A DNA stretch of 64,000 bases from Candidatus Doudnabacteria bacterium (GCA_016788665.1 JAEUSF010000002.1:6006-70005); one strand, 5' to 3'. Positions 15,198-37,760 are shown, counted from the first letter of the stretch. Notes: generated by a model from the letters alone, not told the origin. A program made the numbers and translations.

Positions 15198-15202
15198 ATT
15201 AG

Positions 15203-17166: not shown

Positions 17167-17238
17167 CTTTTTTTATCCCTTCCATCTTCTTACAATTATT
17201 TTCCCAGCTCCATGTTATAAGCTCCATGTTACATGTTA

Positions 17239-20410: not shown

Positions 20411-20454
20411 AAAAAACCCAAAATAAAACTCCCGGGGGCACAGCCGGGAGTTTT
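20411..20454 (-). terminator. Rho-independent terminator (CTCCCGGGGGCACAGCCGGGAG plus U-run)
   Basis: GC stem followed on the minus strand by TTTTATTTTGGGTTTTT; just after the stop of the 20482-21048 gene. Confidence 0.7.
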
Positions 20455-20481
20455 AAATTTATTTCGCAATTCTTATTTACA

Positions 20482-21048: not shown

Positions 21049-21236
21049 ACTTAATTATTGATTTGTTTTTTGTGGCTCTAAAAAATTTTGTTTTAAAGCC
21101 TTTTTTGTTTCAATTCGTACATTCTTTTCGCACACTTGCGAAATCGACCTTTAGAATATTACGTTACATACATTATAGCACAGCTACAGAAAAAAAGCAA
21201 ATGATCTGCAGGACACAAAATTAAAACACTACCGAT

Positions 21237-21290
21237 GCCTACAGAAATCTAATCATATTTAGATTACTATATTTCTGTAGGCATCACGTA
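21237..21290. terminator. Long hairpin (15-bp perfect inverted repeat GATGCCTACAGAAAT) downstream of ftsZ
   Basis: Direct reading; U-rich tract follows on the minus strand. Confidence 0.5.
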
Positions 21291-21317
21291 GTGTATTTTT
21301 TTGTAGTTCTCGTAGTA

Positions 21318-22511: not shown

Positions 22512-22784
22512 GATGATCTTTATAAAGAATTATACCCAATAAGTTATGCACTTGCAAACTTTACAGCTTAAATACAAGCCTTTAATGAAAATTTAAAATA
22601 ATAAAAAGCCAGCTTTCAAAGATGCTCGTTTGGTAGCTTGGCTTTTTGTTTTTGCTGTTAAATTTTAACAGAGAAATGTTTTTGCTTTTGTCTAACTATA
22701 ACATACTCATAAAATATTGCAAACTACTTACCAAAAAGGGAGCCTAAGCTTACAGCAAAGACTCCCTTTTAACAACTAACCGTT

Positions 22785-23069
22785 TTAGCTATTTTGAATG
22801 CGGCTTTTTAGCTCGGCTTGTTCCAAAGCTTCGCCAGCGTTAGCGGCTACTTTCTTTAAAGCCTTTAACTCCTCTATGGCCTCGTCCAGAAAAGCGAGCT
22901 CAATTTTATTAAACGTGTTTTCACTCTGCACATGTAGCATGGTTAAATCAAGCAAAATTTTGCCTGCTTCCTTTTCAGAAACATCGGAACTCAAAAAAAC
23001 TTGCAAAACACTTTTTGCCTTTTCTATGTCCCCGTCTTCTAGAGCCTGTTTTAAATCTTGAATTTGCAT
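22785..23069 (-). CDS. Small acidic coiled-coil protein, hypothetical
   Basis: ORF followed by the hairpin terminator AAAGGGAG...CTCCCTTT (22735-22775). Confidence 0.45.
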   Translation of the reverse strand: MQIQDLKQALEDGDIEKAKSVLQVFLSSDVSEKEAGKILLDLTMLHVQSENTFNKIELAFLDEAIEELKALKKVAANAGEALEQAELKSRIQNS

Positions 23070-23070
23070 T

Positions 23071-25176
23071 TTATAATTTTGCCTTATAGGCTTTTAAAAC
23101 TATCGCCAGGGCTTTTTCACCCGGCGAGCCCTTTTTGTAAACATCTATTAAACCTTCCAAAACTTCATTTTTTACTTCAAGATACCTAGGACTCGTCGCC
23201 GTATCCCCCAACGCTCTTTCTATAGACATCATTTGGAGCTTGAGTTTTTCTATAGTCGTACTGCCTTTTTTAAACTCTTTAAAACCTTTCACCATTTCTC
23301 TGGTAGCTACAATCATTACAAGTTCTTTGGCGTCCTTTTCTAACTGGTCATATTCCCTACCCCCTCCATAGTCCTCTCCTGCGTCAAAGTACTCTACTCC
23401 GGAACCGTCACTTTCCTCAAAAGCCGAATCTAAACTTTGCCAAGCTTTTAAAGCCTTTTCTAAAGAAGCATCCGGCTCGGTTAAAACTTTTAGGTTTTGC
23501 CTAAATTCCTTTCTAACTTCTGCTATAACCTGCCTGGTCTCTTCTGCTTCGTTAAATAAATACCTAGTTAAACTTTTGAGCTTTAGCTCCATAGCAGCTT
23601 TTTCCTCAGACGCATTTTGCAACTTTTCAAGCTTCCTTTCCAAGCCCGCTACTTTACCTAGGCTTTCAGAAAATACTGCCTCCGCCTTTTCCATTGCAAC
23701 TTTATGTCTTTGGTCAGGACTCTCTTTCCTAAAACTCTTCCATGCGCTTACAGGACCCTCGTTCCTAAAACTCTTCCATGCTCTTGCCAGCACGTTTTTA
23801 CCAGAAAACTCTTTGGACTGCCTGTATAGCCTTGCGCCCTTCTGAACACTGTTATTTCTATACTCAGTTTCTATTCTATTTCCCACTTTACTTACATTTT
23901 TATACAAGTCCTGAAGACTCCCAAAACCAATGTCGTCCCTATTCGCCAAATCGTTTAAATCTTTAATGCGGCCAATATCGGCCGGGTTCCTTAACACTGT
24001 TGAAATTTCCGCCTTTAGTCTATATGCGTCCTCCAGAGAATTCCAAACGCTTCGGGGACCACTAACTCGAGCAACACCACTAAACCCCCTAAGCGACAAT
24101 TTGCGCACGTCGTCCAATTTTTGATTCAGCTTAGTAACCTCCTCACCACTTTCAGGGTCGGCATAATCAACCTTACTTAACTGTTCGCTAATACCTCTTC
24201 TGTACTCACCCAGCAAATCTTCGGACATGCCTCCGGCCGCATCAATCGCCTCGTCAAAATTTTTCATTATTCCCGCCGCAGCTTCTAAACTGAATTTTTT
24301 TCCGGTATCTAGCTTAGCGACCGCTTCGACTTTATTTTTTGCTGCCTGCAAATAGTTCTGCAGTTCATCTGTGTTCATTCCTGCTTCTGCAAACACCTCG
24401 GCTCTTTTTTCCACCACTTCCAAATACCGCCCATATTGTTCGGCATTTTCCTGTGCCGTTTTTACAGACTCCAAACCAGCTTTTTGCATTTCTGCTTCTA
24501 CTATTTTAAATTCGGCAGAAAATTGCCCCAATGCCTTTTCACCCCTCACTATGGCATTGAAGGCATTATTTTCGGCTTCCAGAGTAGTCTTTCTTTCTTC
24601 CGCGCTTCCTAAACTTTCTTTTGAGTCTATAAGTTTACTTTCCAAACTATCTTCAGGCTCCATGGCTGAAAGCTCTTCCTGCTTAGCTTTTATTGCCAAA
24701 GGCAGCTTTTCATAATCTTCCAAATCCTGATTTATTATTTTAAGCGCCTCTACTCCTTCGTTTTGGACTCTTTCCATTAAGCCCTGCTCCAAACCTTTTA
24801 GCTGTTCAGGCTTTAGCTTTACGCTTGTGTCCTTTAAAATTTTTGCTTGTAAAATTTCCCCAAGCTTTTTACTTGCTTTAGGTATTTCTTTAAAAGCCTC
24901 AAAGCGTTCCTTTACTAATTTTTCATCTGCCTCGTCCATATCTAAAACCTCGGCATCTGGAAAACCAGCCAAAAACTCCGAAAAGCCAGGCGTATTTAGC
25001 GCGGTCTCCATAGAGAAAGCCCCGCTCTCTACAGCAGCGTGCTCAGTTTCGGAAGAATGATTTGTTTTTGTTTCAGCTTTATGGCCATGACCCTTAGACT
25101 GCCTAAACGAAGTTAAGTCTTGGCCAAACTTTGAACCGGTAACCGGCTCGCCATTTATTGCAGTTATATTTACCAT
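23071..25176 (-). CDS. Large coiled-coil protein, hypothetical; contains an internal tandem duplication (AWKSFRNEGPVS/AWKSFRKESP)
   Basis: 701-aa ORF with heptad-rich K/E/L composition; stop abuts the start of the next gene. Confidence 0.5.
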   Translation of the reverse strand: MVNITAINGEPVTGSKFGQDLTSFRQSKGHGHKAETKTNHSSETEHAAVESGAFSMETALNTPGFSEFLAGFPDAEVLDMDEADEKLVKERFEAFKEIPKASKKLGEILQAKILKDTSVKLKPEQLKGLEQGLMERVQNEGVEALKIINQDLEDYEKLPLAIKAKQEELSAMEPEDSLESKLIDSKESLGSAEERKTTLEAENNAFNAIVRGEKALGQFSAEFKIVEAEMQKAGLESVKTAQENAEQYGRYLEVVEKRAEVFAEAGMNTDELQNYLQAAKNKVEAVAKLDTGKKFSLEAAAGIMKNFDEAIDAAGGMSEDLLGEYRRGISEQLSKVDYADPESGEEVTKLNQKLDDVRKLSLRGFSGVARVSGPRSVWNSLEDAYRLKAEISTVLRNPADIGRIKDLNDLANRDDIGFGSLQDLYKNVSKVGNRIETEYRNNSVQKGARLYRQSKEFSGKNVLARAWKSFRNEGPVSAWKSFRKESPDQRHKVAMEKAEAVFSESLGKVAGLERKLEKLQNASEEKAAMELKLKSLTRYLFNEAEETRQVIAEVRKEFRQNLKVLTEPDASLEKALKAWQSLDSAFEESDGSGVEYFDAGEDYGGGREYDQLEKDAKELVMIVATREMVKGFKEFKKGSTTIEKLKLQMMSIERALGDTATSPRYLEVKNEVLEGLIDVYKKGSPGEKALAIVLKAYKAKL

Positions 25177-25278
25177 GTATTTATAATAGTATAAATTTAT
25201 TTTAAATTCAAACCAAATCTAAACAGCTTTTATATAACAAATTAATATGGTATAATTTATACAAATATAAACACATTT

Positions 25279-26799
25279 ATGAAACAAAAAATATATAGTT
25301 CTGTACTAACCTTACTGTTCTTTTTTAATATCTTTGGCATCCTAGGCCAACCAGCAGCGGCACAAACTTTTTGCCAATTTAGCATAACAAGCTTTGAGGC
25401 TCAAAACACTTCGGCCACCGACTATAGCACAGTAAACAAAAACAGCTCGGTAAAAGTTTTTGTTAAAAGCAGCTTTGACCAAGTTTGTGTTAAACCATAC
25501 ACAGTCGTTTACACCTTCCAACTAAAAACCAAGTCTGGCTACACAACAGTACAAACAAAAGAATTTACCCCTCCCATAAATACTTCAACCCATGACTTTA
25601 ATTTCATTTACGACCTAAGTTCTTTTTCGGGCTGGAATAACTTATCGGATAATGCGAAACTTGAATACAGCCTTACTGCTTCTGGAAAGTCAGGAGCTGT
25701 ATCCAGACCCTTTGCAAATACTAATACCTGGGGCAAATTTTTAAATGTTACCGGATCTAGCACCGGTGGGACAACTCCAAGCGGTACCGGCAATCTTTCT
25801 ATGCAGCTTGCTGTAGACAAAGCCGAAGCATTAACCGGCTCTACTTTATATGTAGATATTAAAGTGAACGGAACTGTTACAGACCCGCTAGCGATACAAA
25901 AAAAATATAAAATATTAACCTATGTAAACACAAAATGGGTTGGACAGTTCAGGGACCTTACCTCCACACAACTGACCCAATCAAAAACCCAAGAAATAGT
26001 AGTGAATACAGAAAACGGATTTAAAGCTGGTGCAAATACCATACGGGTAGAAGCATACAACCAAGATACGAACACTCTAATTGCTCAAGCAAGTTTAAAT
26101 ATTTCTATGCCAGGAGCAAGCTCTAACTCTTCTCCTACTGTTAGTGTATCCCCAACAAAATCTTCTTATGCATTAGGTGAGACTATTACTTTGCAGTTTC
26201 AAAATCTTCCCAGTGGAAGAGTTGGAGTAATTACAATAAACAATGCAGTAGACAAAACTCTGCCCCAACAAAATAACTTCCCTATCGAACTTTCGACAAC
26301 TAACGGCTTTAACGATAAAAGCAATAACAACATTTTAATTAAAATTTCCGACAGCTCAGGTGCGCCGGTAACTTTAGACAAAAGTTCGCTAACTATTCCT
26401 ATTGGCATACAAGGTGCGCAGACCAATTCATCAAGTACACCAGGTACAACCGGAGGAATTCCAACTCTTAGTGAAACTTTAGTTAACCCTCTGCCCTGGG
26501 ACGGACTTTTAGAAACTTTCTTAGGTATAACCAAAGGCTTGTTAGCCGGCTTAGCTATTTGGGCAGTTATAGCAATTATAATAGCTGGCTTTAGAATGGT
26601 TCTCGCAGCTGGCAACGAAGAAGCTATAGCTACTGCCAAAAGGTCTATAACTTGGGCTATTTTAGGTTTAGTTGTAGCCATACTTTCTTTTAGCATAGTG
26701 GCCATAGTCCAAAACTTACTCAACGTAAAAATAGAGCAGTACGACCCGCGTCCAGTTACTGGTTACGAACAAACTCAAGAACCAAAAAACTTAAGTTAA
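25279..26799 (+). CDS. Secreted Ser/Thr-rich surface protein with a C-terminal TrbC/VirB2-pilin-like two-helix hydrophobic hairpin
   Basis: Signal peptide MKQKIYSSVLTLLFFFNIFGILGQPAAAQ; C-terminus GLLAGLAIWAVIAIIIAGFRMVLAAGNEEAIATAKRSITWAILGLVVAILSF. Confidence 0.5.
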   Translation: MKQKIYSSVLTLLFFFNIFGILGQPAAAQTFCQFSITSFEAQNTSATDYSTVNKNSSVKVFVKSSFDQVCVKPYTVVYTFQLKTKSGYTTVQTKEFTPPINTSTHDFNFIYDLSSFSGWNNLSDNAKLEYSLTASGKSGAVSRPFANTNTWGKFLNVTGSSTGGTTPSGTGNLSMQLAVDKAEALTGSTLYVDIKVNGTVTDPLAIQKKYKILTYVNTKWVGQFRDLTSTQLTQSKTQEIVVNTENGFKAGANTIRVEAYNQDTNTLIAQASLNISMPGASSNSSPTVSVSPTKSSYALGETITLQFQNLPSGRVGVITINNAVDKTLPQQNNFPIELSTTNGFNDKSNNNILIKISDSSGAPVTLDKSSLTIPIGIQGAQTNSSSTPGTTGGIPTLSETLVNPLPWDGLLETFLGITKGLLAGLAIWAVIAIIIAGFRMVLAAGNEEAIATAKRSITWAILGLVVAILSFSIVAIVQNLLNVKIEQYDPRPVTGYEQTQEPKNLS

Positions 26800-26803
26800 A
26801 AAT

Positions 26804-26880
26804 ACCATTCAAAAAACCATGTTCTACCCTCACCTAACCTCTCCCTGGAAAGGGAGAGGAATAAGAGAGAACATGGTTTT
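26804..26880. repeat. Compound hairpin: 21-bp perfect inverted repeat CCATTCAAAAAACCATGTTCT enclosing inner hairpin CTCTCCCTggaaaGGGAGAG
   Basis: Direct reading; sits exactly at the low-GC/high-GC junction. Confidence 0.7.
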
Positions 26881-26987
26881 TTGAATGGGGGCAAAGCGAA
26901 GTCTGGTTAGACCGCTTTGCCCGAGTTAAGGTGCGCGCGCATTGCTCGTGGGTGCACGAGCCTGCGCCGCCTTCATAGTCAAGTACG

Positions 26988-27656
26988 TCACGGGAGCTTA
27001 CCCTTGGGCCCAAAGGCGAGCCCGTGAGCGTTGCCTTCGGGATAGAACAACACATCGCCCCGAAGCCCATACTCCCCCCAAGCCTTTTTATTTGCGATGT
27101 TGTGTCCGTCCGCAAACATAGGCTTAAGGTTTGGGTCATGCCCTTTCAGGTAGACCCTTTTACCGTCTGGTCCTACGAGGTAAAGCTTTACCTCGTAGTC
27201 GTGCAGCGAGTTCCGGTACGACCGAGGCAGTACCAGAAGAATGGGCTTGTTCGGCTCGCATTTGTCGAGCTGTGTGAGATACCGAATTTCCCCCTCTATC
27301 TGCTCCGCCGGGCACACGTCCCGCAGCGCCAGCTTGGGATCGCCAAACTTAGCTTTGTCGGCCTCCAGCCTCAGGGTTTCTGCCGCGTAGGTTTCGACGG
27401 CCTTTTGCGAGTTGCCTTTTAAGATTTCACTTTTCACACTCTTGGTCCGCTCGGTAAAGCGATCCTGCAGAGCGCTGTTCACGTCCCGCTGGCGGTTTTG
27501 ATGCGCCGGCACCATAGGCACCTGCGAACGAAAATCCCTCCAGACCGTATAGAGACAGTAACCTATTAGCAATGCAATGATAGTTCCACCGATGACAGGC
27601 AACTTATCCTCAAGCCTATCCCAAAACCCTTTCTTATGAACCACTTCCGTCGACAT
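26988..27656 (-). CDS. Island protein E: single-pass membrane protein with C-terminal globular domain, unknown function
   Basis: Start ATG overlaps the stop of the upstream gene (TAATG); TM helix LPVIGGTIIALLIGYCLYTVW; high-GC codon usage. Confidence 0.5.
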   Translation of the reverse strand: MSTEVVHKKGFWDRLEDKLPVIGGTIIALLIGYCLYTVWRDFRSQVPMVPAHQNRQRDVNSALQDRFTERTKSVKSEILKGNSQKAVETYAAETLRLEADKAKFGDPKLALRDVCPAEQIEGEIRYLTQLDKCEPNKPILLVLPRSYRNSLHDYEVKLYLVGPDGKRVYLKGHDPNLKPMFADGHNIANKKAWGEYGLRGDVLFYPEGNAHGLAFGPKGKLP

Positions 27657-28633
27657 TAGTGTCCTCCTCCATGTCCGTGCGAAGTCTTTTTCCCGAGCCG
27701 TCCCAGCATTAGGATGACTAAAATTGCAATTACCGCATACCCGATGTTCAACGGGTCGTCCCAGCTGATGTACCAATCGGGCAACGACAAGCTGAAGTTC
27801 CAGTTTTGGCTAATCATGCCTCGGATCGAGTAAAACCCGACCGCAGCCATGCTGGCCACAATCAGAACCTTGGCGAACCAGTTGTCCGCCCAAGATAGCG
27901 CGACCAAGCTCACAACGACTGTAAGCAGTAGCCACACTATGTGTGGCATCCCAAGTGGTGCCGGTAAAGGCCCTTTCGGCGCTGGTGGCACCTCAGGTCC
28001 TTTTACCATAGTCATCAAGTCTGCGTGAACCCCGTCGGCGGTTTCAAGCCGCGGACGAAGTTTTGCGAGCTCGGTGCGGAGCTGTTTTTCGGTTAGCCTT
28101 CCTGCAGCGTACTGCTGGTAAAGCTTTAACGTTTCCGCTCCGACCTTGTCACCGAACTGCTCTGCAAGGAGTTCGTTGGTAACAAACAGCTTCTTCCGAG
28201 CCGGCAGGTTCGCCGGTTCGGCTTGTGCCGCGGCATTGAGCAATGCCTTTTCTTTGGCGTTGCTTGCCGCGCTTCCAAGCGCGTCGCTCTGTTGGTACAG
28301 AGCAGTAACTATGGCCTTGTCCACTTCGAGCCACAGCTGTGGCACGAGCGAGACAAGCCAGAATAACATAACCTTGGTTGCCCACGACGCCCACGCGTCG
28401 TGGTTGTTACTCAAGACTCGCGCCAGCATGGAAAGCGCGAGCGCGAGCGGCAAACCCTGCTGGACGGCAACAACCGCCCAAGCGCTCTGCGTGTGTCCTA
28501 CGAAGTAGGCACACGCGACCAGCATGAGCAGCAGCACGAGCCACCACTCTTTCAGAATCTGCATAGGGTTAGCACCGGTCCCGGTGGGAGCCGGCGCGGG
28601 GGTCGTTGCGGTCGTGTGAGCGTGTTCGCTCAT
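27656..28633 (-). CDS. Island protein D: polytopic membrane protein, unknown function
   Basis: At least six hydrophobic helices; ends GHGGGH; GC-rich. Confidence 0.5.
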   Translation of the reverse strand: MSEHAHTTATTPAPAPTGTGANPMQILKEWWLVLLLMLVACAYFVGHTQSAWAVVAVQQGLPLALALSMLARVLSNNHDAWASWATKVMLFWLVSLVPQLWLEVDKAIVTALYQQSDALGSAASNAKEKALLNAAAQAEPANLPARKKLFVTNELLAEQFGDKVGAETLKLYQQYAAGRLTEKQLRTELAKLRPRLETADGVHADLMTMVKGPEVPPAPKGPLPAPLGMPHIVWLLLTVVVSLVALSWADNWFAKVLIVASMAAVGFYSIRGMISQNWNFSLSLPDWYISWDDPLNIGYAVIAILVILMLGRLGKKTSHGHGGGH

Positions 28634-28642
28634 GCAAGCCTC

Positions 28643-30145
28643 CTAAAAAAGTGGTTTCAAAAACGGGAAGTACCGCGTTAACACATGGCCGACCAGGTTC
28701 ATAGCTACCTCAACCATGATGTCCTTCTCAATAAACTCCCGCCACGATTCCCGGCCAAGCGGCGCAGGCCTCGCGTGTGGCTTGTGTTCCGCGTGTTCTT
28801 CAACTGGGGGTTTCTCTCCTACGTTTTCACCGTTTTTCTTACGGTATACGACGTAAACTCCTTCATATTTTCGCCGTTCAGCGACAAGCTCTACGGCTTC
28901 CCGCTTGTGGGCGAACCTTCCCTTTGCGGCCGCACTGGCTTGCCCTACCTCATCGGCAAGACAAACCGGAACCCAAAAAATCCAGAACAATATCCAGTAA
29001 AGGAGCCAGAAGCCCACGCGGGCTAAAGGCCGTCCTTCATGTATGGCGCGAAATGGGATAACAATAGCCACCGCTTCGGAAAGCAGCGACGGTTTACCCG
29101 TCTTTTTAGCTTCGGGTTTTAGAGCCGGCAAGCTGTCCGGTTCCTCCGAAAAGGACCCGAGTTGGCTTTCCAGTGCCTTGCGGCGAGCATCCTGCTTTTC
29201 GCGAGGCGATGCCGAATTCTCGACTACCGTCTCTTCCTGCGTGCCGCGAGGGTTAAAGAGCAAGCTCAGCAACCCATACGACATGTAGAGAGAACTCCAA
29301 ACCCCGAGCCAGAAAATCAGGCCTAGGAGTTTGTTGTTGTTCCGCCGCCACTTTTCACCACACCAAGCATAAAAACCCTGCTCTGCATGGTGACCGTGAT
29401 GGCCAGCATGCCCTGCGTGTCCACCATGCTCATGAGCATGGCCATGGAGAACAGCCGCTACGTTCAGGTCGAGCATGTCTGCCCGGTGAACGTATACCGT
29501 TTCCTCGCCGTTAACCTGGAACCTGGAACTAAAAGTTCCTTGTTCCGAGGTTGCAATTCGGGTGCCGCTAAAAACAACGTCGGCCTTACAGCCAACACCG
29601 TCTTCAAACGTCTGCCCTTCCAGGCTCCATGCGTCTTCGGTCCCCGACACGGGGACAAAGCGAGTGTAGAGCGCGTAAACCGGGTCGGAGGACTTTGCAG
29701 CCTTAGGCTTTTCAGCCGTTGGCGGCACTTGTCCGGCCGCAGAACCTGCCGGTTGTTCTTCCGGCAAATCTGCAACGAACTCATCGGCGCCGAGCTTGAC
29801 GCCAACTTTTTTTAGCGCCTCTTTTTTATAGGCGCTTAAGTCAATGCCCGCTACCACCCCTTCTCCGTCTACCACTGAGAGAGTATAAACCTCTCCCCCA
29901 GTCTTGGACGGGTCTGGAATGGAATAAGCGCAAGGATCCGATGCCGGACCAAAGCACAAGGGGAACTCATGCGTCTGTCCCTGTCCGTTCAGGTAATACT
30001 TCACCCGAACGATTAGGGAAGACATTGTTCCCGAAACAAACAACCTTAGGTCCTTTTTTGGACCCTGATGCTGTTGCTGCTGCGGGTTTCCGCCTCCTCC
30101 TCCACCACCACCACCTGTGCGGTTGCGGTTTTGATTATTTCTCAT
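28643..30145 (-). CDS. Island protein C: membrane protein with poly-Gly/Gln N-terminus and a His-rich metal-binding-like segment (HGHAHEHGGHAGHAGHHGHH)
   Basis: Internal Met with GGAGGA SD 9 nt upstream; TM helices after the His-rich segment. Confidence 0.5.
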   Translation of the reverse strand: MRNNQNRNRTGGGGGGGGGNPQQQQHQGPKKDLRLFVSGTMSSLIVRVKYYLNGQGQTHEFPLCFGPASDPCAYSIPDPSKTGGEVYTLSVVDGEGVVAGIDLSAYKKEALKKVGVKLGADEFVADLPEEQPAGSAAGQVPPTAEKPKAAKSSDPVYALYTRFVPVSGTEDAWSLEGQTFEDGVGCKADVVFSGTRIATSEQGTFSSRFQVNGEETVYVHRADMLDLNVAAVLHGHAHEHGGHAGHAGHHGHHAEQGFYAWCGEKWRRNNNKLLGLIFWLGVWSSLYMSYGLLSLLFNPRGTQEETVVENSASPREKQDARRKALESQLGSFSEEPDSLPALKPEAKKTGKPSLLSEAVAIVIPFRAIHEGRPLARVGFWLLYWILFWIFWVPVCLADEVGQASAAAKGRFAHKREAVELVAERRKYEGVYVVYRKKNGENVGEKPPVEEHAEHKPHARPAPLGRESWREFIEKDIMVEVAMNLVGHVLTRYFPFLKPLF

Positions 30146-30563
30146 ACTTGACTTTCCTCCTACGGAAATGTCAAAGATCTCTTCTTGAGCGGTAAGTAAA
30201 CCGGTCTCAAGGATTCCACAAAAGTGGAATATCACCTTACGGTGAGTAAAACCTTGTAAAAGTGGTGCCCAATGTAAAACCCCGCTTTTTAGGGCGGGGC
30301 AAAACATTAGAATTTACAAGGTTTTGCCCACCACAAGCAAAAACATAAAAATATTCAATTATTTAATTTTTTAAACTAGCTAATTGCTGTAAATAAAATA
30401 ATTTTACTTACACCACCCAACTAATTCATGTATTGATTTTTCACTTACTACTTACTACGAGCTACCAGCTACTAGCTAGAAAATGGGGGGAAAGTTTATA
30501 AGCTCTCCCCCGCCTTTGTTATGTGTCTCCCGCCCTGTCCGTAGACAGTTTGGGAGAAAAGCG

Positions 30564-32165
30564 TTACTTCTTCGTGACAGGCAGATTCCAGGTTTGGATC
30601 TCTGCCTGGACTTCCTGCGCCTTGGTGGCCGCGTCGGGGTTGACGAGCGCCGTCTTTGGCGGCGTGTCTTTCCCAAGCAACCTCTTCTTACCCGGCTCCA
30701 CCACAAATGTGGTGTTACCGATTCCGGCAACAGCTTCAGCGAGCTTGACGGTTTCACCCGCCAGCTTGCCAAGACCCTCGCCGACAGGCTTAACCTCTTC
30801 GCGAACAATCTCCTTCACCCGGTCTTCCGACACGCCTTCCGACATGCCGTCAACCTTAGCCTGGAGAGCGTCAACCTTCTTTTGAGCCGCCTCGGCCTTC
30901 GCCTCGAGGAGCTTGTAACGCGTGTCTTCGAAGACCGCTCCCTTCACTCGCTTTTCGCGAGCCTGTTCAATCGCCGCAATAGCTTCCTTGCTCGTCCCCG
31001 CTTTCGAGGACGAAAGGAGCTGGATGAGTTTATTGTAATCCAGACCAAGCTCCTGGGCTTGACCCAACAGATACGACCTGAACAACTTCTCTTCGCCGGC
31101 GTTTCCGCCCACCATCTGCTTAATTGTGACCGCCATGCGGTCACGACTAATCCATTCGCCTGCAGAAACAATTTCCAAGGAAGCTTCCACTTCCTTGCCG
31201 TCGATTTTAACGGTGGGGTAATCACGCTTGGCGCCCGAAGACGCCTTAATCTTGAAACTAAATCCGCCGGGAACCGTTTTGACATCGGTAACAGCAATAT
31301 TGCTGTCCACGACCTCAATCGTCTTCCCGACAACACCTCGGCATACCATGGCGATTTCAGTTCCATCATCCGGAACTGCGTTGTTACGATACTCAGGGTC
31401 ACCGCAAGTGACCTTCGGTCCGGCAGCACGAACATCCGCCACCGCTCCAAACAGGAGCAGCAGAGCTACTGCGTGAGACGCCATGCCCTTTGCGGCACCC
31501 TTGCCCTTGCTCTTAATGAGCGAAAGGCCCATGAAGACAACAAAAATAATAAACGCTCCGATAGCTCCATACTTCAACAAAGAAAGCACGGCGCTCACCT
31601 GCTCAGACAAGTCCTTGACCTGCTTTTGCAGATCCGCGACCTGCTCCTTCCCAGCAGGACCTGCAAAGAGGGCCCGGATCGCATCTGCCCTGGTCTCTAG
31701 GCTTTCCAGCCGAGAGTCCAAGTCGTCCAGGTTGGTCTTCTTCTCAACCACATGGACTGTTATCTCACTCTCCCCCTCAACTTTAGGCTCGGACGAGTCC
31801 GAAACCTTGACCTTGAGGGTTATATCCCCGGCCTTGTCCGGCTCCACCACCAACTTATACTGGTCGGCGTGGTCCCCGACCGCCTCGAGTTTTGCCCCGA
31901 CGGAATCGGGGTCAACCGACGCGGACAATGTTGCCGTGTAGGGGGCCTTACCCCCCTTGATCGCAACGGTGACCGACGCCGGGCCACGGCTGGCCTCGAG
32001 TGTCCCGAACTCGGGGACGCTGACGGTGAGACCACCAACCGCCGGAGCAGCGGGCGCCTCCTTCGAAGCGCCAGCAGCCTTACGGCTACGCTGGGCAAAC
32101 ATTTTGTCAGTCGAGCCCGCGAGAAACGCGAGCGTTAGAAGCAGAGAAAAAACAAAACGGGACAT
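30564..32165 (-). CDS. Island protein B: large secreted/membrane protein, unknown function
   Basis: AAGGAG SD then MSRFVFSLLLTLAFLAGS signal peptide; internal TM helix; Ala/Val/Lys-rich. Confidence 0.5.
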   Translation of the reverse strand: MSRFVFSLLLTLAFLAGSTDKMFAQRSRKAAGASKEAPAAPAVGGLTVSVPEFGTLEASRGPASVTVAIKGGKAPYTATLSASVDPDSVGAKLEAVGDHADQYKLVVEPDKAGDITLKVKVSDSSEPKVEGESEITVHVVEKKTNLDDLDSRLESLETRADAIRALFAGPAGKEQVADLQKQVKDLSEQVSAVLSLLKYGAIGAFIIFVVFMGLSLIKSKGKGAAKGMASHAVALLLLFGAVADVRAAGPKVTCGDPEYRNNAVPDDGTEIAMVCRGVVGKTIEVVDSNIAVTDVKTVPGGFSFKIKASSGAKRDYPTVKIDGKEVEASLEIVSAGEWISRDRMAVTIKQMVGGNAGEEKLFRSYLLGQAQELGLDYNKLIQLLSSSKAGTSKEAIAAIEQAREKRVKGAVFEDTRYKLLEAKAEAAQKKVDALQAKVDGMSEGVSEDRVKEIVREEVKPVGEGLGKLAGETVKLAEAVAGIGNTTFVVEPGKKRLLGKDTPPKTALVNPDAATKAQEVQAEIQTWNLPVTKK

Positions 32166-32732
32166 GGACCACTCCTTGTGAACTTGAACAGAATTCAGAG
32201 GGGACGCCTCTGGCTTTGGGACAAATGGCGTCCTCTGCAAAAAAGTTTCAAGCACGCAATTTTACAGCCGACACTTAGTCAAATGTAAAGTGCGCTAAAA
32301 TAAAAACCTTTTTGCAAAGGACCACCACCTTCCACCTAACATCCGCAAAATCTGCAGCTATCTGCGTATCTGCGAATTGTAACGCTTTTAATCCTCCTAA
32401 TAAATTTATTTAATGTACAAGCCCGAATAGAAATTCCAGGCTCATATCTTTAGCTAAAACAAGCCAATTAGCTAAAAATATGAACCAAGCTATATATAGT
32501 ATTAAATTGACATATAATTATACTAGATTTGACCTAAAAAGTCAATATTTAGTCTGTTTATTGCTCATATTTAAAGCAAAAAAAATTTTCACTCCCTATT
32601 TTATAGCCGAAAACAGGCCATGGATGCATATACACCCATGGCCAAAATGCCTTAAAAGGCTAGTTGTACAAGGAGAGTGGCTTTTGCCTTTTTTGAGTAG
32701 AAAGGCATGTTCGCACGCAGATACTAAAATCT

Positions 32733-33590
32733 TTAGGTTTCGGGAGGGGGTTCTTCTGGAGATACTACGTTTCTTGTGGGCTTGTTTGCCCTAACGGTCT
32801 CCTCCCCACTATACCCGCTTGGAGGCTGTTTGCGCCGCGCCTTTTTATACCAAGGCCCAAACTCTTCTTCACCGTACCCGGTCTCGTTAAACTGCCTATA
32901 CTTGTAAGTCCACTGAAGCCTGCCGCTCCGCCAAAGCCAAACTATCATTCCAATCGTGCTCAGCAAGAGCAAAATTCCCAAAAGCCAAACGGTATTTCCA
33001 CGGCTCCACCGCACATTTTCAAACGGCTTCTTCCAGAGAGGCGGACGCTTTGGGGCAATAGGTTTTTTTACCACACCCGAACCCGCCAAAGACTCCAGCC
33101 GGGAAATTTCGGTCCTCTGGGCTATAACCTCTTTGCCCAAAGTACCTAGCTGTGCTCTTAAAGAAGCAACTTCTGCTTCCAAAGCATCAACCTTCCGCTC
33201 AAGCCCCCGCATTTTAAGCCCGCCGTCTTCTTCCGGCTTAACCAAGCCCGCCGTTCTGCCTCTTATGTTTCTTCCAGAAGCAGAAGAATGGCGCGCAAAG
33301 GCACCAAGCTCCTTCAAAAGCAGTTTGGCGGTTAAGCTCTGGCTTGGCTTTGCGTCTTTGGGCAAAAGAAAAAACTTGTTATGCAGTTTGCGGTAAAGTT
33401 TCGGGTCAAGCACACGCCCGTTTTCATCCTGCAAGGCATAAAGCAAATAAACGCTCTTGCCCGCCCGATTTAAATCCGCCATGGGTCCGTACTTGCTTGC
33501 TGCTATCCGCTCGACGTTGTGAGCAAAAACCTGAAACACGCACACCAAAAGTCCCAACACTGCACACCGCACTGTCCTTGTAACTAACAC
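32733..33590 (-). CDS. Island protein A: signal-peptide protein with coiled-coil and C-proximal TM helix (GTG start)
   Basis: AGGAGG SD 9 nt before GTG; MLVTRTVRCAVLGLLVCVFQVFA signal peptide. Confidence 0.5.
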   Translation of the reverse strand: MLVTRTVRCAVLGLLVCVFQVFAHNVERIAASKYGPMADLNRAGKSVYLLYALQDENGRVLDPKLYRKLHNKFFLLPKDAKPSQSLTAKLLLKELGAFARHSSASGRNIRGRTAGLVKPEEDGGLKMRGLERKVDALEAEVASLRAQLGTLGKEVIAQRTEISRLESLAGSGVVKKPIAPKRPPLWKKPFENVRWSRGNTVWLLGILLLLSTIGMIVWLWRSGRLQWTYKYRQFNETGYGEEEFGPWYKKARRKQPPSGYSGEETVRANKPTRNVVSPEEPPPET

Positions 33591-33724
33591 TTTTACTTGC
33601 CTCCTTAGAATTTTTAAAGCCTCATTTTTTGCGGCCTTAGGCTTTGACGCATTATTTAAAATGCGTCAAAACCAAAAACAGCCAACTTTCAAATTAGAGA
33701 GTAAGCCCAAAACCTTGAATATAA

Positions 33725-33750
33725 ATTAAAACCACTCTATTTTTAGAGTG
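33725..33750 (-). terminator. Rho-independent terminator after ftsA (ACCACTCTA ttttt TAGAGTGGT)
   Basis: 9-bp perfect stem followed on the minus strand by TTTAATTTATATT. Confidence 0.65.
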
Positions 33751-33767
33751 GTCTTAAAGAAAAAACA

Positions 33768-35015
33768 TTATGGCAATAAAGATTTAAGCCAACGCTTGGC
33801 TTTTTCTAGTGCGGGATTTTTCAAAAAAGCACCCAAGGAATTTTCAAGTCTTCCACTCGAAACAGTTCCATACTTTTGGCCCCACAAAACTAACCCCACC
33901 GCTGTAGCAAAAGCAGGTTCGCTAACCCTGTCTATAACCGTTTCTACGTTTTGACTAACGCCCAAAGCCGAAGGAAGGCGCAAATGCTTTTTGGCAAAGT
34001 CTACCACCCCGGGCAAATGGCTACCCCCGCCCGTTAAAACTATACCCGCTGGCAATTTCCCGTCTCTATTTATGCGTTTTAATTCCGCAATAACACGGTC
34101 GAAAATTTCTTCCAGCCGGGCTTCAATTATTTCCACAACCAAACCTCTTAAAGTGGTCTGCTGTTCAGACTGGTCTATTTGGTTTAAGAAGATTTCTTCG
34201 TTTTTATCTATAGCCTTTATATCGCAGTGCCCATACAACAGCTTTACCTTTTCTGCCGTTTCAATACTTGTCCTAAGCCCTATGGCAATGTCGTTGGTCA
34301 TATGCTGGCTGCCAATTGGGATAATTGAAGTATGCATTAAATCACCCTCTTCGTATACAGAAACTGCCGTAGTACCCGCGCCCAAATCTACCACACAGAC
34401 CCCCAAGTCTTTTTGTCTTTTACTTAAAACGCTTTCGGAAGCCGCTAAAACGCCCAGAACCAGCTCATTTATTTCCAAGCCCGCCTGCATAACGCAACGG
34501 CTTAAGTTTTTTATAAATGGGCTACCCGCCTGCACAATTATACTTTCGACTTCTAAACGAATACCACTCATACCAGCCGGATCTTTTATACCACTCTGGC
34601 CGTCTAGAGTAAAACTTTTTGGAAAAACGTGTAAAACTTCTCGGTTAGAAGGTATAGATATTGCCTGGCTGGCATCTACCACCCTAACAATATCTGCTTC
34701 GGTAATTTCGCCATCAGCTCTAGAAACTGCTATGACCCCATGGGAATTCTGGGACGTAACATGACTGCCTGAAACAGAAATATTTGCCGAATCAACTGGC
34801 ACACCTGTCATTCTCTCCACCCGTTCCAAAGCAGTAGAAATACAAGAAACCGCCTCCTCAATGTCCACCACCACACCTTTCCTCAGACCAGCCGAAGGAA
34901 CCTCGGCCGCACCTATAATTTGCACACTCAAACCGTCAGGCTTCACTTTGCCCTGAACAGCCCTAATATGACTAGTGCCTATGTCGAGACCTGTAATGTA
35001 TGATTCTTTTGCCAT
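33768..35015 (-). CDS. ftsA: Cell division protein FtsA
   Basis: Actin-like ATPase, ITGLDIGTSHIRAV...; 415 aa. Confidence 0.85.
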   Translation of the reverse strand: MAKESYITGLDIGTSHIRAVQGKVKPDGLSVQIIGAAEVPSAGLRKGVVVDIEEAVSCISTALERVERMTGVPVDSANISVSGSHVTSQNSHGVIAVSRADGEITEADIVRVVDASQAISIPSNREVLHVFPKSFTLDGQSGIKDPAGMSGIRLEVESIIVQAGSPFIKNLSRCVMQAGLEINELVLGVLAASESVLSKRQKDLGVCVVDLGAGTTAVSVYEEGDLMHTSIIPIGSQHMTNDIAIGLRTSIETAEKVKLLYGHCDIKAIDKNEEIFLNQIDQSEQQTTLRGLVVEIIEARLEEIFDRVIAELKRINRDGKLPAGIVLTGGGSHLPGVVDFAKKHLRLPSALGVSQNVETVIDRVSEPAFATAVGLVLWGQKYGTVSSGRLENSLGAFLKNPALEKAKRWLKSLLP

Positions 35016-35046
35016 TCAAAAGATGGAATTAGGAAGTAAGAATTAT
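35005..35046. repeat. Heptad repeat leader (GGAATTA GGAAGTA AGAATTA TGAAGTA) abutting the ftsA start; near-identical to the 45672-45704 element before topA
   Basis: Direct comparison: TTACTTCATAATTCTTACTTCNTAATTCCAT is shared. Confidence 0.7.
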
Positions 35047-35078
35047 GAAGTAAAAATTTACAACATAAACTCACAAAT

Positions 35079-35522
35079 TTATTTTAGTTTTTCTTTCAGT
35101 ACCTTTGCCAAGCTTGCACCGTCGGCATTATTGCCCGCCTTTGCCTTTAAAACTCCCATGGCTTTTCCAAAGTCAGCCGCGATAAAGCCACCTTCCGCAA
35201 TAACAGCGTCAGCTATTTTGCCCAATTCTTCTTCAGACATTTGGGGTGGTAAAAATTTAGACAAAATTTCCGCTTCTGCTAGCTCTTTGTCCTTTGCTTC
35301 CACATTCCCACCCTTTTCAAAGCCCTGCGCCGCTTCTTTACGTTTTTTTATTTCTGAACGGACCAAAGCCAAAATTTCATCTTCCCCCAAATCTTCAACC
35401 ATTTTAGAAACCTTCTCATTTTGAATACGGGTTTTTAAACCGCGTAAAACGCCCACCGCCACTGAATCCTTGGCCTTCATGGCAGTTATCATATCTTTTT
35501 CTATTTGTTGTAATGAAATCAT
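35079..35522 (-). CDS. GatB/YqeY domain protein
   Basis: MISLQQIEKDMITAMKAKD... family N-terminus (internal Met chosen); downstream of rpsU as in many bacteria. Confidence 0.7.
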   Translation of the reverse strand: MISLQQIEKDMITAMKAKDSVAVGVLRGLKTRIQNEKVSKMVEDLGEDEILALVRSEIKKRKEAAQGFEKGGNVEAKDKELAEAEILSKFLPPQMSEEELGKIADAVIAEGGFIAADFGKAMGVLKAKAGNNADGASLAKVLKEKLK

Positions 35523-35539
35523 GTTTATAATTTCAAATC

Positions 35540-35600
35540 TCAAATTACAAACTTCATCCGCCATTGGAGGATGAAATTTGATATTTGGAATTTGTTATTT
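35540..35600. repeat. Imperfect 26-bp-arm inverted repeat built from heptads (GAAATTT GATATTT GGAATTT GTTATTT)
   Basis: 21 of 26 arm positions pair; lies between rpsU and yqeY. Confidence 0.55.
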
Positions 35601-35850
35601 ATCTTCTGCCAAACCTTCTGGTCGGCACTATTAGCTTACCTTGTTTTTTAAGCTCTTCTTTTTCTGCTTTAATTTGGGCTCTTCGGCGCGCAGCGACTCT
35701 TTGTAAATTACGGGACTTAGTGCTCTGGAAAAAACGAGTTTTTCTGGCACGAATAAGCACGCCGCTCTGCTGGATTTTGCGGTTAAATCTTCTTAACAAG
35801 CTGTCGAACGATTCGTTGTCTTTACGTTTTACTTCTACCAATCTACTCAC
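35599..35850 (-). CDS. rpsU: 30S ribosomal protein S21
   Basis: MSRLVEVKRKDNESFDSLLRRFNRKIQQSGVL... Confidence 0.8.
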   Translation of the reverse strand: MSRLVEVKRKDNESFDSLLRRFNRKIQQSGVLIRARKTRFFQSTKSRNLQRVAARRRAQIKAEKEELKKQGKLIVPTRRFGRR

Positions 35851-35954
35851 ACTCCTTTCAAAAGTGAGGAACAGGTTTAGAACAAATTCCTAAATACAAT
35901 TCCCGGTAGGTTAAAAATCTTCAATTATTATAAAATAATTTTAGTTTTTGGTCA

Positions 35955-36062
35955 AATATGCTTACTGGAGTTAGGAATTTGGAAGTAGGAATTAAAAACA
36001 CCTTCATAATATGAAGGTGTTTAGTACGAACTCCTAACTCCTAACTCCTAATTCCAACTTCT
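35955..36062. repeat. Compound element: perfect hairpin AACACCTTCAtaatatGAAGGTGTT flanked by (GGAGTTA)n/(AACTCCT)x3 heptad arrays in inverted orientation
   Basis: Direct reading. Confidence 0.65.
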
Positions 36063-36073
36063 TGACTCCAAGC

Positions 36074-36409
36074 CTATTCTGGCAGCTTCTTTCCTCCCAG
36101 CAAGTGCAAGTGCAAGTGCGGAATAACCATACCCCCGTCGCGTCCGACATTAAATATTAACTTATAACCCGTCTCCCCAACCCCGAATTTCTCTGCCATT
36201 TCCTTAGCTGCAAAAACCAGTTTTCCCATAAGCAGCTCGTCTTCCGGCTTTGTGTGATGCACGGAAACAATATGTTTTTTAGGTATGGCCAACAAATGCA
36301 CAGGGGCTTTGGGTAAAATATCGCGTATAACAATCAGGTCATCATTTTCCAGCAACACCGGCGCTTCAATAGTTTTATTTACAATATTACAAAATACACA
36401 ATCTTCCAT
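36074..36409 (-). CDS. HIT-family nucleotide hydrolase
   Basis: Histidine triad HLHLHLL. Confidence 0.8.
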   Translation of the reverse strand: MEDCVFCNIVNKTIEAPVLLENDDLIVIRDILPKAPVHLLAIPKKHIVSVHHTKPEDELLMGKLVFAAKEMAEKFGVGETGYKLIFNVGRDGGMVIPHLHLHLLGGKKLPE

Positions 36410-36461
36410 TTTTTTGCTTACCAGCTGACCTGCTTATAAGCTTGTCAGCTATTAATTTTGC

Positions 36462-37760
36462 TTAACGACCAAGTCTTTTTTTAACCTCTTCTACTATTTT
36501 ATCATAAGAAATTATTTCCTGCATGCCGCTTTTTACATCACGCAGTATAACCATTTCTTCCACCGCCTCTTTCTGACCAATTATCAAAGCTATTGGAGCC
36601 TTTTGCGCCTCGGCAGCTTTCAGTTGATTCTTTACTCCCACATGGCCAAAGTTGTCATACACTACCACCTTGCTCATAGTCAGATCACGGAACAATTTTA
36701 ACGCACGCTTAGCCGCCAATTCCCCCAAAGGAACCAAAAAAACTTCAGACAAATTTTCCTGTTCAATTAGCACACTTGTCGAAACCACCAAACGCTTTAA
36801 AACCAACAAGCTGCCAACAAAGCCAAAACAACAATAGTTTTTTCCACACAAATTCTGAATTAAGTCGTCGTGATATCCGCCTTCACCCAAAATTACAGTT
36901 TTATCTTCAACTTTATATTTAATAGCAAAATTTGTCCTGCTGTGACCAGCCGCTCCGGCATAAAGCGGGTTTAACTGGTAAGCTATGCCTAGTTCATCTA
37001 AGGCTTCCAAAATATTTGTAAAGTGCTTATTAGAATCTTCGCTTAAAAAGTCCAAAACCGTAGGCGCTTCCGACACAACCGCTCGGCAGTCCAACCTGTC
37101 ACAACGAAGCACATTAAGCGGCCTATTTTGTAAATGCACATGACAAGCGTCACACAAATCCAGCTTCCTATTCTGCAAAAATTCACCCAAACTTTCCTGA
37201 TAAACCTTCTGGCAATTTGCATCACCAATATTGTTTATTTCCAAAATAGCTTCGTTAAGCCCTAAAGATCTTAAAAGCTCCCACACAGAAGCAATGACTT
37301 GCGCTTCTGCTAAATGTCCAAAATTCCCAAAAATCTCCATACCAAATTCCAAATCCTGCTCAACTATACCCTGGTTATGGTCTAACTTGCTAACAAAACC
37401 GCTATAATGGAATTTCTGAAAACTACCCTGTTCAAATAGCTTATGCTCATAGTAGGCTCTGAGCAAGGAAGGCAGAATACCACTCCTAACGGCAATATTT
37501 TGGCTCTGAGAAAGCGAACAGACCTGTTTAAACCTGTGAGGCCTTTCCCTATAAAACTGCTCGTATAATCTCAGCTCTTCCAATACTGGCAACTCTGCTT
37601 TAGAAAAGCCATATATATTGCACACTCTTTGAAATTTTCTCAGTATAGCATCATCTAGCGGGTCAGAGCCTGCTAAAATATCTGCCGAACCAGGCAAACT
37701 ACCCACTTTTTTTGGTACATATGCAGATGCTGTGCTGAAATTTTTTTTCGGTCTACCCAT
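36462..37760 (-). CDS. Class II aminoacyl-tRNA synthetase-like protein, divergent histidyl-tRNA synthetase family, with a HisRS/ThrRS-type anticodon-binding domain
   Basis: C-terminal ...PIALIIGQKEAVEEMVILRDVKSG... HGTP-anticodon-like domain; N-terminal catalytic motifs are degenerate. Confidence 0.45.
   Translation of the reverse strand: MGRPKKNFSTASAYVPKKVGSLPGSADILAGSDPLDDAILRKFQRVCNIYGFSKAELPVLEELRLYEQFYRERPHRFKQVCSLSQSQNIAVRSGILPSLLRAYYEHKLFEQGSFQKFHYSGFVSKLDHNQGIVEQDLEFGMEIFGNFGHLAEAQVIASVWELLRSLGLNEAILEINNIGDANCQKVYQESLGEFLQNRKLDLCDACHVHLQNRPLNVLRCDRLDCRAVVSEAPTVLDFLSEDSNKHFTNILEALDELGIAYQLNPLYAGAAGHSRTNFAIKYKVEDKTVILGEGGYHDDLIQNLCGKNYCCFGFVGSLLVLKRLVVSTSVLIEQENLSEVFLVPLGELAAKRALKLFRDLTMSKVVVYDNFGHVGVKNQLKAAEAQKAPIALIIGQKEAVEEMVILRDVKSGMQEIISYDKIVEEVKKRLGR

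Follow-up and report, generated by a model that had tools for sequence, protein, structure and literature searches.

A GC-rich segment between ftsA and ftsZ in a Candidatus Doudnabacteria genome: a probable position-fixed locus of exchangeable envelope-gene cassettes

The subject of this study is a GC-rich segment that lies between ftsA and ftsZ, two cell-division genes, in a metagenome-assembled genome (MAG) of Candidatus Doudnabacteria, a lineage of the candidate phyla radiation (CPR), or Patescibacteria. The window, meaning the whole stretch of DNA analysed, comprises 64,000 nucleotides from a 151-kb contig (JAEUSF010000002.1:6006-70005; NCBI locus tags JNN11_01240-01270), and all positions count from its first letter. 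The genome of the window is called W here, and L-numbers designate the loci of relatives. A preliminary analysis made from the DNA alone, referred to below as the sequence-only reading, had described a high-GC island in which the GC content jumps at 26885 and falls at 33597. These limits agree with the sharp edges that we find at ~26.85-26.90 kb and ~33.60 kb; the level of 58-60% that it gave was too high. GC content is 52.5% within 26885-33597 as compared to 40.0% in the remainder of the window; the five genes of the segment range from 51 to 57%, and values of 58-59% are reached only in some 500-bp intervals. GC at third codon positions (GC3) is 0.53-0.66 in the island genes versus 0.30-0.45 (about 0.38) in the open reading frames (ORFs) of the host. 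The segment takes up part of an ftsA-ftsZ gap of 11.2 kb, in which three further genes have native GC content. Its own genes, named A to E from left to right, are co-directional and lie on the minus strand, as had been stated, and ORF analysis also agreed that the long plus-strand ORFs (e.g. 30483-31700) are shadows. The view that a single AT-rich spacer splits the island into two blocks did not hold: there are two AT-rich troughs, at 30.15-30.56 kb (minimum GC 0.21 at 30.3-30.4 kb) and 32.17-32.73 kb (0.22 at 32.45-32.55 kb), and the island comprises three units of transcription (E, D and C-B-A), all of which have a terminator-like hairpin. Consensus scans, the source of the promoter and terminator calls in the window, place the hairpins of E and D at 32616-32643 and 30486-30511, 3' of the respective genes on the minus strand.

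All five proteins have predicted signal or transmembrane (TM) segments, and all five genes are preceded by a Shine-Dalgarno (SD) motif (GGAGG for A, B, C and E, AAGGAG for D), in agreement with the earlier description. Gene E (32733-33590, minus strand; ORF and TM prediction) encodes 285 aa with a signal peptide, an ectodomain, a leucine-zipper-like coiled coil, a TM helix and a cytoplasmic tail; its only family matches are sub-threshold hits to coiled coils. Gene D is treated separately below. Gene C (28643-30145, minus strand; ORF and SD) encodes 500 aa when read from the SD-preceded ATG at 30145; the annotated product of 554 aa extends to 30307. The ATG at 30145 is probably the true start, as a hairpin of the leader falls inside the N-terminal extension of the annotated protein. 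The leader of the C-B-A unit (30146-30365, minus strand) carries this terminator-like hairpin (30279-30300) nested in a 25-nt inverted repeat (30236-30260 / 30313-30337) with 84%-complementary arms, a layout like that of an attenuator or riboswitch expression platform, and it is a possible attenuator. The C protein has a Gly/Gln-rich N-terminus, a beta-rich region, a His cluster HGHAHEHGGHAGHAGHHGHH (residues ~259-278) and TM helices; both the poly-Gly/Gln stretch and the cluster had been spotted in the sequence-only reading, and the latter, which is the basis of the metal-handling role suggested there, could bind metal. A single-sequence AlphaFold model of C is uninformative (predicted local distance difference test, pLDDT, 44). 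Gene B (27656-28633, minus strand; ORF and TM prediction) encodes a polytopic membrane protein of 325 aa with a C-terminal HGHGGGH tail. Its stop codon overlaps the start of A in a TAATG at 27654-27658, giving the translational coupling already proposed, and codons of the HGHGGGH tail (27656-27680) form the SD of gene A. The product of gene A (26988-27656, minus strand; ORF and TM prediction), NCBI MBL8029853, has 222 aa with an N-terminal TM anchor (residues 21-39) and an extracytoplasmic domain; its 90% cluster is a singleton. His-rich stretches recur in cassette proteins: apart from the B tail and the C cluster they occur as ...AHAHH in L001_525 and ...AAHH in L004_366 (His-rich C-termini located at L001 15610-17187 and L004 17730-18830), and as a His/Asp-rich loop in P0023, a protein of the D family.

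Proteins A to E gave no match above noise in Pfam, NCBIfam, PHROGs or PADLOC and no recognisable catalytic domain in these libraries, as expected from the lack of catalytic motifs noted before. Nor was there any tblastn match in 50,697 phage and 72,556 plasmid records, or any close relative in IMG/VR. Valid searches of large protein databases cover C (5.8 billion proteins) and D (1.84 billion representatives); A, B and E were compared with smaller libraries. Among the 5.8 billion proteins C matched only itself.

Translation signals also separate the segment from the rest of the window. None of the ~40 host ORFs has GGAGG at its first start, and only two have a 4-mer of the motif; within the window, SD motifs belong to the GC-rich cassettes alone. 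Several host genes have TATAAT just ~10-20 nt 5' of the ATG (e.g. upstream of 22511, 25176 and 35015), a pattern which suggests that host mRNAs of W are mostly leaderless or short-leadered. Relative synonymous codon usage of the island and of the host is uncorrelated (r = -0.15). Islands resemble each other at r = 0.61-0.69 and any high-GC genome at r = 0.48-0.66; because the former likeness barely exceeds the latter, codon usage is uninformative on a common source. Two other origins of the anomaly were considered. A structured-RNA gene as the source of the high GC is ruled out by the ORFs, which reach ~500 codons, the SD sites and the conserved protein family. Mutagenesis by a diversity-generating retroelement was dropped, as the window contains no reverse transcriptase gene and the anomaly covers whole genes.

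The genes that flank the gap had been named correctly. ftsA (33768-35015, minus strand), the conserved right flank, bears that name at NCBI and is 67-94% identical in relatives; ftsZ (21318-22511, minus strand), the conserved left flank, is 80-81% identical to the Pfam-annotated FtsZ of L027 and L030. The two genes adjoin each other in L005-L007, which are more distant Doudnabacteria, and in L009, L010 and L022 from elsewhere in the CPR, which bears out the supposition that adjacency is the norm. Relatives were gathered by a scan for FtsA, with one genome per GTDB species, and further contigs were added through members of the D family. In the nearest relatives with sequence 3' of ftsA (FtsA identity to W: L001, 84%; L002, 83%; L003 and L004, 69%) several kb 3' of ftsA have a GC of 0.49-0.69 against a background of 0.35-0.45, and the gap contains ORFs of GC 0.48-0.65 with SD motifs, interspersed with ORFs of GC 0.35-0.42 that lack them. 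GC-rich SD-led genes lie in the gap likewise in L024, L025, L027, L033, L035 and L036; with W, L001-L004 and L030 these make up the loci that have GC-rich cassettes between ftsA and ftsZ. The GC-rich gap is seen in every relative with sequence 3' of ftsA (FtsA 67-91% identical). In those members of the clade that have a higher GC, the cassettes exceed ftsA and ftsZ only slightly in this respect. TM or signal segments are predicted in 19 of 22 GC-rich gap proteins versus 0 of 10 low-GC gap proteins other than pilins.

While position and composition stay constant, cassette content is replaced wholesale between close genomes. L001 and L002, whose FtsA proteins are 91% identical, do not share a single island gene. 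W, at 83-84% FtsA identity, has D alone in common with L002, and at 29% identity; overall, D identities of 27-35% do not track FtsA identities of 67-84%. No counterpart of A, B, C or E was detected in any of 15 syntenic loci, and pairwise Smith-Waterman comparisons with shuffles of these four against the position-equivalent proteins of relatives gave nothing significant. The exceptions in that series are weak signals for C (z of 3-4.6), probably compositional, and L004_366 versus L001_525 (z = 5.6). Directly 3' of D-type genes lies a second GC-rich, SD-led family (L002_384, L003_317, L033_331 and L036_298) that is absent from W. Its members, at L002 10661-11815, L003 17013-17966, L033 12027-13022 and L036 11618-12514, match each other at E down to 1e-67; besides a signal peptide they possess a domain that contains Cys, and a TM helix at the C-terminus. 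Several contigs end inside or beside the island (L008, L026, L029 and L030), breaks that would fit population heterogeneity at this place.

Gene D (30564-32165, minus strand) is the one member of the W segment for which a family could be assembled. Starting from an SD-preceded ATG its product has 533 aa (563 aa in the annotation, which extends to 32255), and it consists of a signal peptide, a PKD/Ig-like domain, a coiled coil, a TM hairpin, a second Ig-like domain and a conserved helical domain with the motif EKLFRSYLLGxAQxxGxD...LLxSxKxGTSK. A phmmer search of the 1.84 billion representatives at E<=1e-3 returned 17 matches besides D itself, about a dozen of them alignable. Members of the family begin with a signal peptide that ends in ...AQ. 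A PKD-like domain (GGKAPYT) is optional, whereas the coiled coil, the TM hairpin, an Ig-like domain with two Cys and the helical domain, here with the family motif (D/E)xLFRSFLLGxAQxYGxD-x6-LLxSxKxGTSKEAVxxIExAR, are common traits. Sequence comparison with Pfam and PDB gave no match for the family; Pfam PKD/TIG hits are sub-threshold and limited to single members. In an AlphaFold2 model built on the family alignment the Ig-like domains (residues 47-140 and 253-333) and the helical domain each reach a pLDDT of ~80, with an overall mean of 64.5 and a predicted TM-score of 0.27. Foldseek relates the model to generic Ig-like, cadherin, PKD, SbsC (S-layer) and filamin Ig domains at E ~1e-4 to 1e-5. 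On this modelling D is predicted to be an Ig-like surface protein with a beta-sandwich Ig-like fold.

D homologues sit between ftsA and ftsZ in 10 of the 10 genomes with readable context, among them L024, L025, L026, L027/L028, L033 (on an 868-kb contig), L035, L036 and the metagenome locus L030; the neighbourhood conserved in these D-family contigs is HisRS-HIT-S21-YqeY-FtsA ... FtsZ-NrdR-RNR. Metagenome and IMG/VR loci were sought with a hand-made degenerate DNA pattern for D. All are SD-led and always 57-66% GC (GC3 0.64-0.81), in hosts whose genes are at ~40% or ~50-55% GC, and in all 10 assemblies D has the same orientation relative to ftsA and ftsZ. The family is small, with about 15 relatives, and endemic to the ftsA-ftsZ locus of this clade. 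One D-like gene, in L029, was found outside the ftsA context, at a contig edge in a different neighbourhood; at L029 2178-4908 a reverse transcriptase gene adjoins the GC-rich gene for a protein of 313 aa, in a layout reminiscent of diversity-generating retroelements.

The D-type genes have regulatory sequences in common as well. They are preceded by 440-840 nt of non-coding DNA that always contains TTGAC(A/T)-N17-TATAAT, often as TGCTATAAT, with GGTCA 4-6 nt 3' of the promoter. In W the promoter-like site, TTGACT-17-TATAAT, lies at 32517-32545 on the minus strand and has 11 of 12 consensus matches. The same promoter with GGTCA precedes GC-rich cassettes in 9 relatives, including cassettes other than D (L001_281, L004_315, L004_273 and L003_542). 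Across the clade the cassettes are a class apart from housekeeping genes: GC-rich (GC3 0.5-0.8), SD-led and served by a common near-consensus promoter.

Between promoter and gene D lies a long, structured leader (32166-32516, minus strand) with two notable elements, a helix that we call P2 and a 5' arm AGGAGGATTAAAAGCGTTAC (within 32360-32389). P2 is formed in W by 32304-32322 and 32230-32248; across 9 genomes 93.8% of its positions are paired and compensatory changes occur in 10 of the 16 pairs. No shuffle out of 500 does as well, and slid registers are only 40-47% paired. The 5' arm is complementary to a 3' arm GTAACGCTTTT... (30557-30586, minus strand) that overlaps the stop codon of D. In general terms, GGAGGA/GGGGTAA...RRR(A/G)CGTTA(C/T) in the leader complements GTAACG(C/T)TTT...(A/U)CCCC at the stop codon, the arms being ~1.5-1.8 kb apart in the various D-type genes. 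This complementarity was found in all 10 genomes with both ends available (W and 9 relatives), with compensatory change in 8 of 15 pairs and 0 of 500 shuffles equal; in L035, for example, CGTTA has become CATTA in both arms. The segments of P2 and of the arms were picked and anchored by eye and evaluated as anchored mini-helices with 500 shuffles each. RNAalifold gave no consensus on automatically aligned leaders, where variable inserts break the alignment, and Rfam 15 covariance models gave no relevant match at E<=1 in 20000-37000. We regard the conserved promoter and leader, with P2 and the 5'-3' complementarity, as a candidate for a new cis-regulatory RNA or for an element that pairs the ends of the mRNA. 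Given the abundant covariation of P2, a helix internal to the leader, we favor a role at the RNA level for the complementarity also. The arm duplex might protect the mRNA ends, be processed by RNase III or control translation. Other D-type leaders are located at L002 8618-8894, L024 9529-10001, L026 1465-1840, L027 9392-10001, L033 ~9696-10001, L035 ~1359-1642 and L036 ~9423-10001. In L025 (~880-975), between the promoter and the D homologue on the opposite strand, is a sequence ending in ...GGTTCGATTCCCGCCAGGTCCACCACCA which resembles the 3' portion of a gene for a tRNA or a tmRNA-like molecule; ARAGORN gave no call.

We consider it probable that the segment is W's version of a position-fixed, hypervariable, replacement-type locus of envelope-gene cassettes, located in the ftsA-ftsZ gap of one Doudnabacteria subclade. 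This reading draws on features observed directly, namely composition, the SD dichotomy, synteny, turnover, the endemism of the D family, the conservation of promoter and leader, and covariation. What the locus does, how its cassettes are exchanged and why their GC content stays high we infer as follows. The locus would generate envelope diversity that serves attachment to hosts and/or evasion of phages, a function suggested by the Ig-like/TM architecture of the products, by their variability and by the company of a type IV secretion system (T4SS)-pilin-like gene and, in relatives, of giant low-GC proteins. Cassettes would be drawn from a clade-wide pool and swapped, after DNA uptake, through homologous recombination in the flanks, where ftsA and ftsZ are conserved; uptake and flank-mediated replacement are plausible because comEC and dprA are encoded in the 64-kb window. 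The pool might be GC-richer than the host, with cassettes being replaced before they ameliorate; alternatively, GC-biased gene conversion at a recombination hotspot might keep their GC high. The leader would provide post-transcriptional control or mRNA stabilisation, and the SD sites of the cassettes may reflect the need of structured, GC-rich, leadered mRNAs rather than mark a foreign origin.

Several points weigh against this interpretation. D alone provides a direct link between the cassettes of W and the locus of the clade, since no relative of A, B, C or E was detected in the 15 syntenic loci; moreover, A, B and E are at most putative orphans, the valid large-database search among these four proteins being that for C. 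The functions of the five proteins are predictions. The difference in GC and SD usage has lasted over considerable divergence without a mechanistic explanation, and recombination in the flanks is deduced solely from the pattern and the competence genes. Choosing helix segments by eye inflates the percentage of pairing, though not the compensatory changes. Finally, the continuity of the segment is judged from assemblies.

The other elements of the segment and its surroundings can be described briefly. Between the convergent pilin gene and gene A are hairpins (26805-26922) that include a perfect 21-bp inverted repeat (26805-26825 / 26868-26888) and a second hairpin GGCAAAGCG...CGCTTTGCC (26890-26921). 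The repeat had been reported as marking the left edge of the island; it exists, and is likely part of a bidirectional terminator serving the C-B-A unit and the convergent pilin-like gene rather than a boundary repeat. At the right edge, the ftsA terminator is found as announced, as a terminator-like hairpin at 33726-33757 on the minus strand, and the palindrome TGACGCATT-N6-AATGCGTCA upstream of E, a possible operator or hairpin, is present as well, at 33645-33668 instead of 33649-33672. Heptad repeats, said to run through the spacer from 30310 to 30480, are limited to about five tandem units at 30443-30478 (Tandem Repeats Finder), in the AT-rich D-C spacer of GC 0.21-0.22. They are similar to tandem repeats of 7-14 nt located directly 5' of ftsA, which differ from genome to genome: GAATTAGGAAGTAA x2.4 in W (35026-35058), ACCAACT x2 in L001, AAACGCT x2 in L033, TTCGTAC x2 in L035, and one in L026 too.

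The three native-GC genes of the gap comprise those for two soluble proteins of 94 aa and 701 aa (ORFs at 22785-25176, minus strand), the larger being 30% identical to L001_686, and the T4SS-pilin-like gene (25279-26799, plus strand; Pfam PF18895, 29.8 bits at a cut-off of 26.6), which has tblastn homologues in L001, L004 and L033. In relatives, the gap can hold other material. That of L033 carries AbiEii fragments and a DDE transposase (2729-8204) and therefore takes insertions of other kinds; that of L036 contains, 5' of the D homologue, a 615-aa protein with a weak Tubulin/FtsZ-family match (7392-9239), possibly a divergent FtsZ paralogue. On the far side of ftsZ, the interval up to nrdR in W (13838-21048) contains an ORF of 188 aa and an orphan of 905 aa, together with genes for an AAA+ protein like ClpB and a protein weakly similar to TrwB/VirD4, while L024, L027 and L036 have only one to three short ORFs there; it is possibly a second variable region.

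Other explanations must be weighed against that of an envelope-cassette locus with replacement. One could envision the ftsA-ftsZ gap as a dedicated expression site for clade-wide surface-protein cassettes, with limits set by covarying inverted repeats, a conserved promoter and leader, and exchange or inversion of content; the persistently high GC would then reflect either very frequent recombination, by way of GC-biased gene conversion, or a pool of genes that replicates separately. We regard this as unlikely; if true, it would mean that ultra-small episymbiotic bacteria possess a new system of antigenic variation or of cassettes, and that structured leaders include a new class in which the mRNA is closed 5' to 3'.

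Also unlikely is the idea that the segment is the decayed remnant, or moron-like cargo, of a prophage or of an integrative and conjugative element (ICE) or T4SS island with GC and SD usage of its own that repeatedly targeted this site. Autonomous units with promoter and terminator, the atypical composition and the T4SS-pilin-like neighbour, with its sub-threshold match to an ICE pilin-like family, would fit such an origin; so would the weak TrwB/VirD4-like protein at 13838-15142 and the transposase and AbiEii fragments in the L033 gap. It is difficult to reconcile, however, with the failure to find integrase, relaxase, replication, capsid or tail genes: no Pfam match to an integrase or recombinase was obtained in the ORFs scanned across the 64 kb, and the PHROG, IMG/VR, PADLOC, phage and plasmid comparisons returned no mobile-element or defence match for the island, the PADLOC result extending to its neighbours. 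Furthermore, the pilin gene has native GC, and the D family is seen outside the gap only in the contig-end case of L029.

The inverted repeats that bracket D might instead be recombination sites in the DNA, at which a site-specific recombinase encoded elsewhere would invert or exchange the cassette downstream of a fixed promoter, giving phase or antigenic variation. An inverted repeat of 12-20 bp does flank leader and ORF in 10 genomes, its arms co-vary, the promoter lies outside it, and cassette content turns over. We nonetheless find this quite unlikely, as D occurs in a single orientation in 10 of 10 assemblies and both arms lie inside the predicted transcript, where the second, intra-leader helix with its strong covariation points to RNA. 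No recombinase was found within the 64 kb, though one might be encoded elsewhere in the genome.

The sequence-only reading itself favored a recent import, in one or two insertions now undergoing amelioration, from a high-GC outsider such as an actinobacterial host. The contrast with the host in GC, GC3, SD and codon usage, and the lack of relatives of A, B, C and E in sister genomes, are what such an event would produce. We judge it improbable, and in the form of a one-off import the data rule it out. The GC and SD anomaly recurs at this position in every relative, as far as 67% FtsA identity, so that relatives with FtsA 67-91% identical have GC-rich SD-led genes at this very place; D has relatives only in the ftsA-ftsZ locus of the clade among 1.84 billion representatives and C none among 5.8 billion, so that the proposed donor outside the clade is not supported; and the promoter and leader of D are conserved within the clade. 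Nor are there the usual signs of integration: in addition to the missing integrase, the nearest tRNA is 5 kb away from the segment, and no att-type direct repeats were detected, the repeats at the edges being inverted terminator hairpins.

It is very improbable that A to E are fast-evolving, lineage-specific housekeeping genes of the divisome or envelope that belong with ftsA and ftsZ. Their position inside the division cluster, the TM and coiled-coil layouts of E and D, loosely like FtsB/FtsL/DivIC (a sub-threshold DivIC match has E = 0.52), and the weak tubulin-like gene in the L036 gap speak for it. Against it, such genes are absent from Doudnabacteria with adjacent ftsA and ftsZ, their content is unshared even at 91% FtsA identity (L001/L002), and their composition and translation signals are unlike those of all housekeeping genes. 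As for an artefact of assembly or binning, in which a foreign high-GC fragment was mis-joined, the abrupt GC steps at both edges and the MAG origin of the sequence might raise it, yet two mis-joins would be required, the spacers inside the island are AT-rich like the host, and at least 10 independent assemblies show D, with its promoter and leader, between the same flanks; since these (from ENA, NCBI, JGI and Logan) share the arrangement, a chimeric join is very unlikely, and we give it hardly any weight.

If the segment is indeed a cassette locus of the replacement type, several implications follow. CPR bacteria are thought to live attached to host cells, and to our knowledge the molecules at the CPR-host interface are almost unknown. 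A fixed site of fast-replaced orphan envelope proteins offers candidates for host or phage interaction, and also a marker locus for strain tracking. It further illustrates that an island of anomalous GC need not mean recent horizontal gene transfer, as here the anomaly in GC and in translation initiation is stable over deep divergence, and it raises the question of what sustains two classes of genes within a ~1 Mb genome. A two-class genome organisation, together with a 5'-3' complementary leader, would surprise a specialist. Genomic islands have been reported in Patescibacteria generally, where they make up to 13% of the genome (PMC12455944). In the full-text literature, we found no account of a variable ftsA-ftsZ locus, of the SD/GC dichotomy or of the D leader.

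These properties invite comparison with a number of known systems. In DNA inversion switches, such as the Mpi/Tsr invertons of Bacteroides and the Mycoplasma vsa locus, short inverted repeats likewise bracket a segment beside a fixed promoter at a variable surface-protein locus. In W, in contrast, the repeats bracket a gene and not a promoter, no recombinase is encoded nearby, and 10 assemblies are without inversion. A parallel for the leader may lie in mRNAs whose 5' and 3' untranslated regions base-pair, such as icaR of S. aureus and hbs of B. subtilis, and in the processing stalks of rRNA operons: here, too, a segment of the leader complements the 3' end of its own transcript, with compensatory changes, and the C-rich 3' arm (CUCCC/ACCCC) faces GGAGG/GGGGU of the 5' arm. 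The D transcript differs in that the GGAGG of its leader is not the SD of the D start, which lies ~220 nt downstream, and in that the pairing spans ~1.8 kb and is predicted from nucleotide sequence, a role of the repeats at the DNA level being possible.

As to the locus as a whole, it is akin to horizontally acquired islands and phage morons in having anomalous GC and codon usage and autonomous promoter-gene-terminator units between core genes. It is unlike them in that it is without integrase, tRNA target, direct repeats or outside donor, and in that the anomaly is conserved at one site throughout a clade instead of being lineage-specific. The nearest analogy is with replacement-type flexible genomic islands, the position-fixed, strain-variable loci for surface structures (O-antigen, glycosylation) of marine bacteria and enterics. 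Both have a fixed place between core genes, non-homologous content in close relatives, predicted envelope products, atypical composition and no mobility genes in the island. The W locus departs from this model in that its GC deviates upward, not downward; its products are orphan membrane and Ig-like proteins, not glycosyltransferases; its genes are SD-led in an SD-less host and have a dedicated common promoter and leader; and the pattern holds over genus- or family-level divergence, not just among strains. The flexible surface-gene island is a known concept, and what is new at this locus is an undescribed protein family and a candidate cis-regulatory RNA. What is unusual is the upward deviation in GC and the separate mode of translation initiation, both of which last down to 67% FtsA identity though the cassettes themselves are short-lived.

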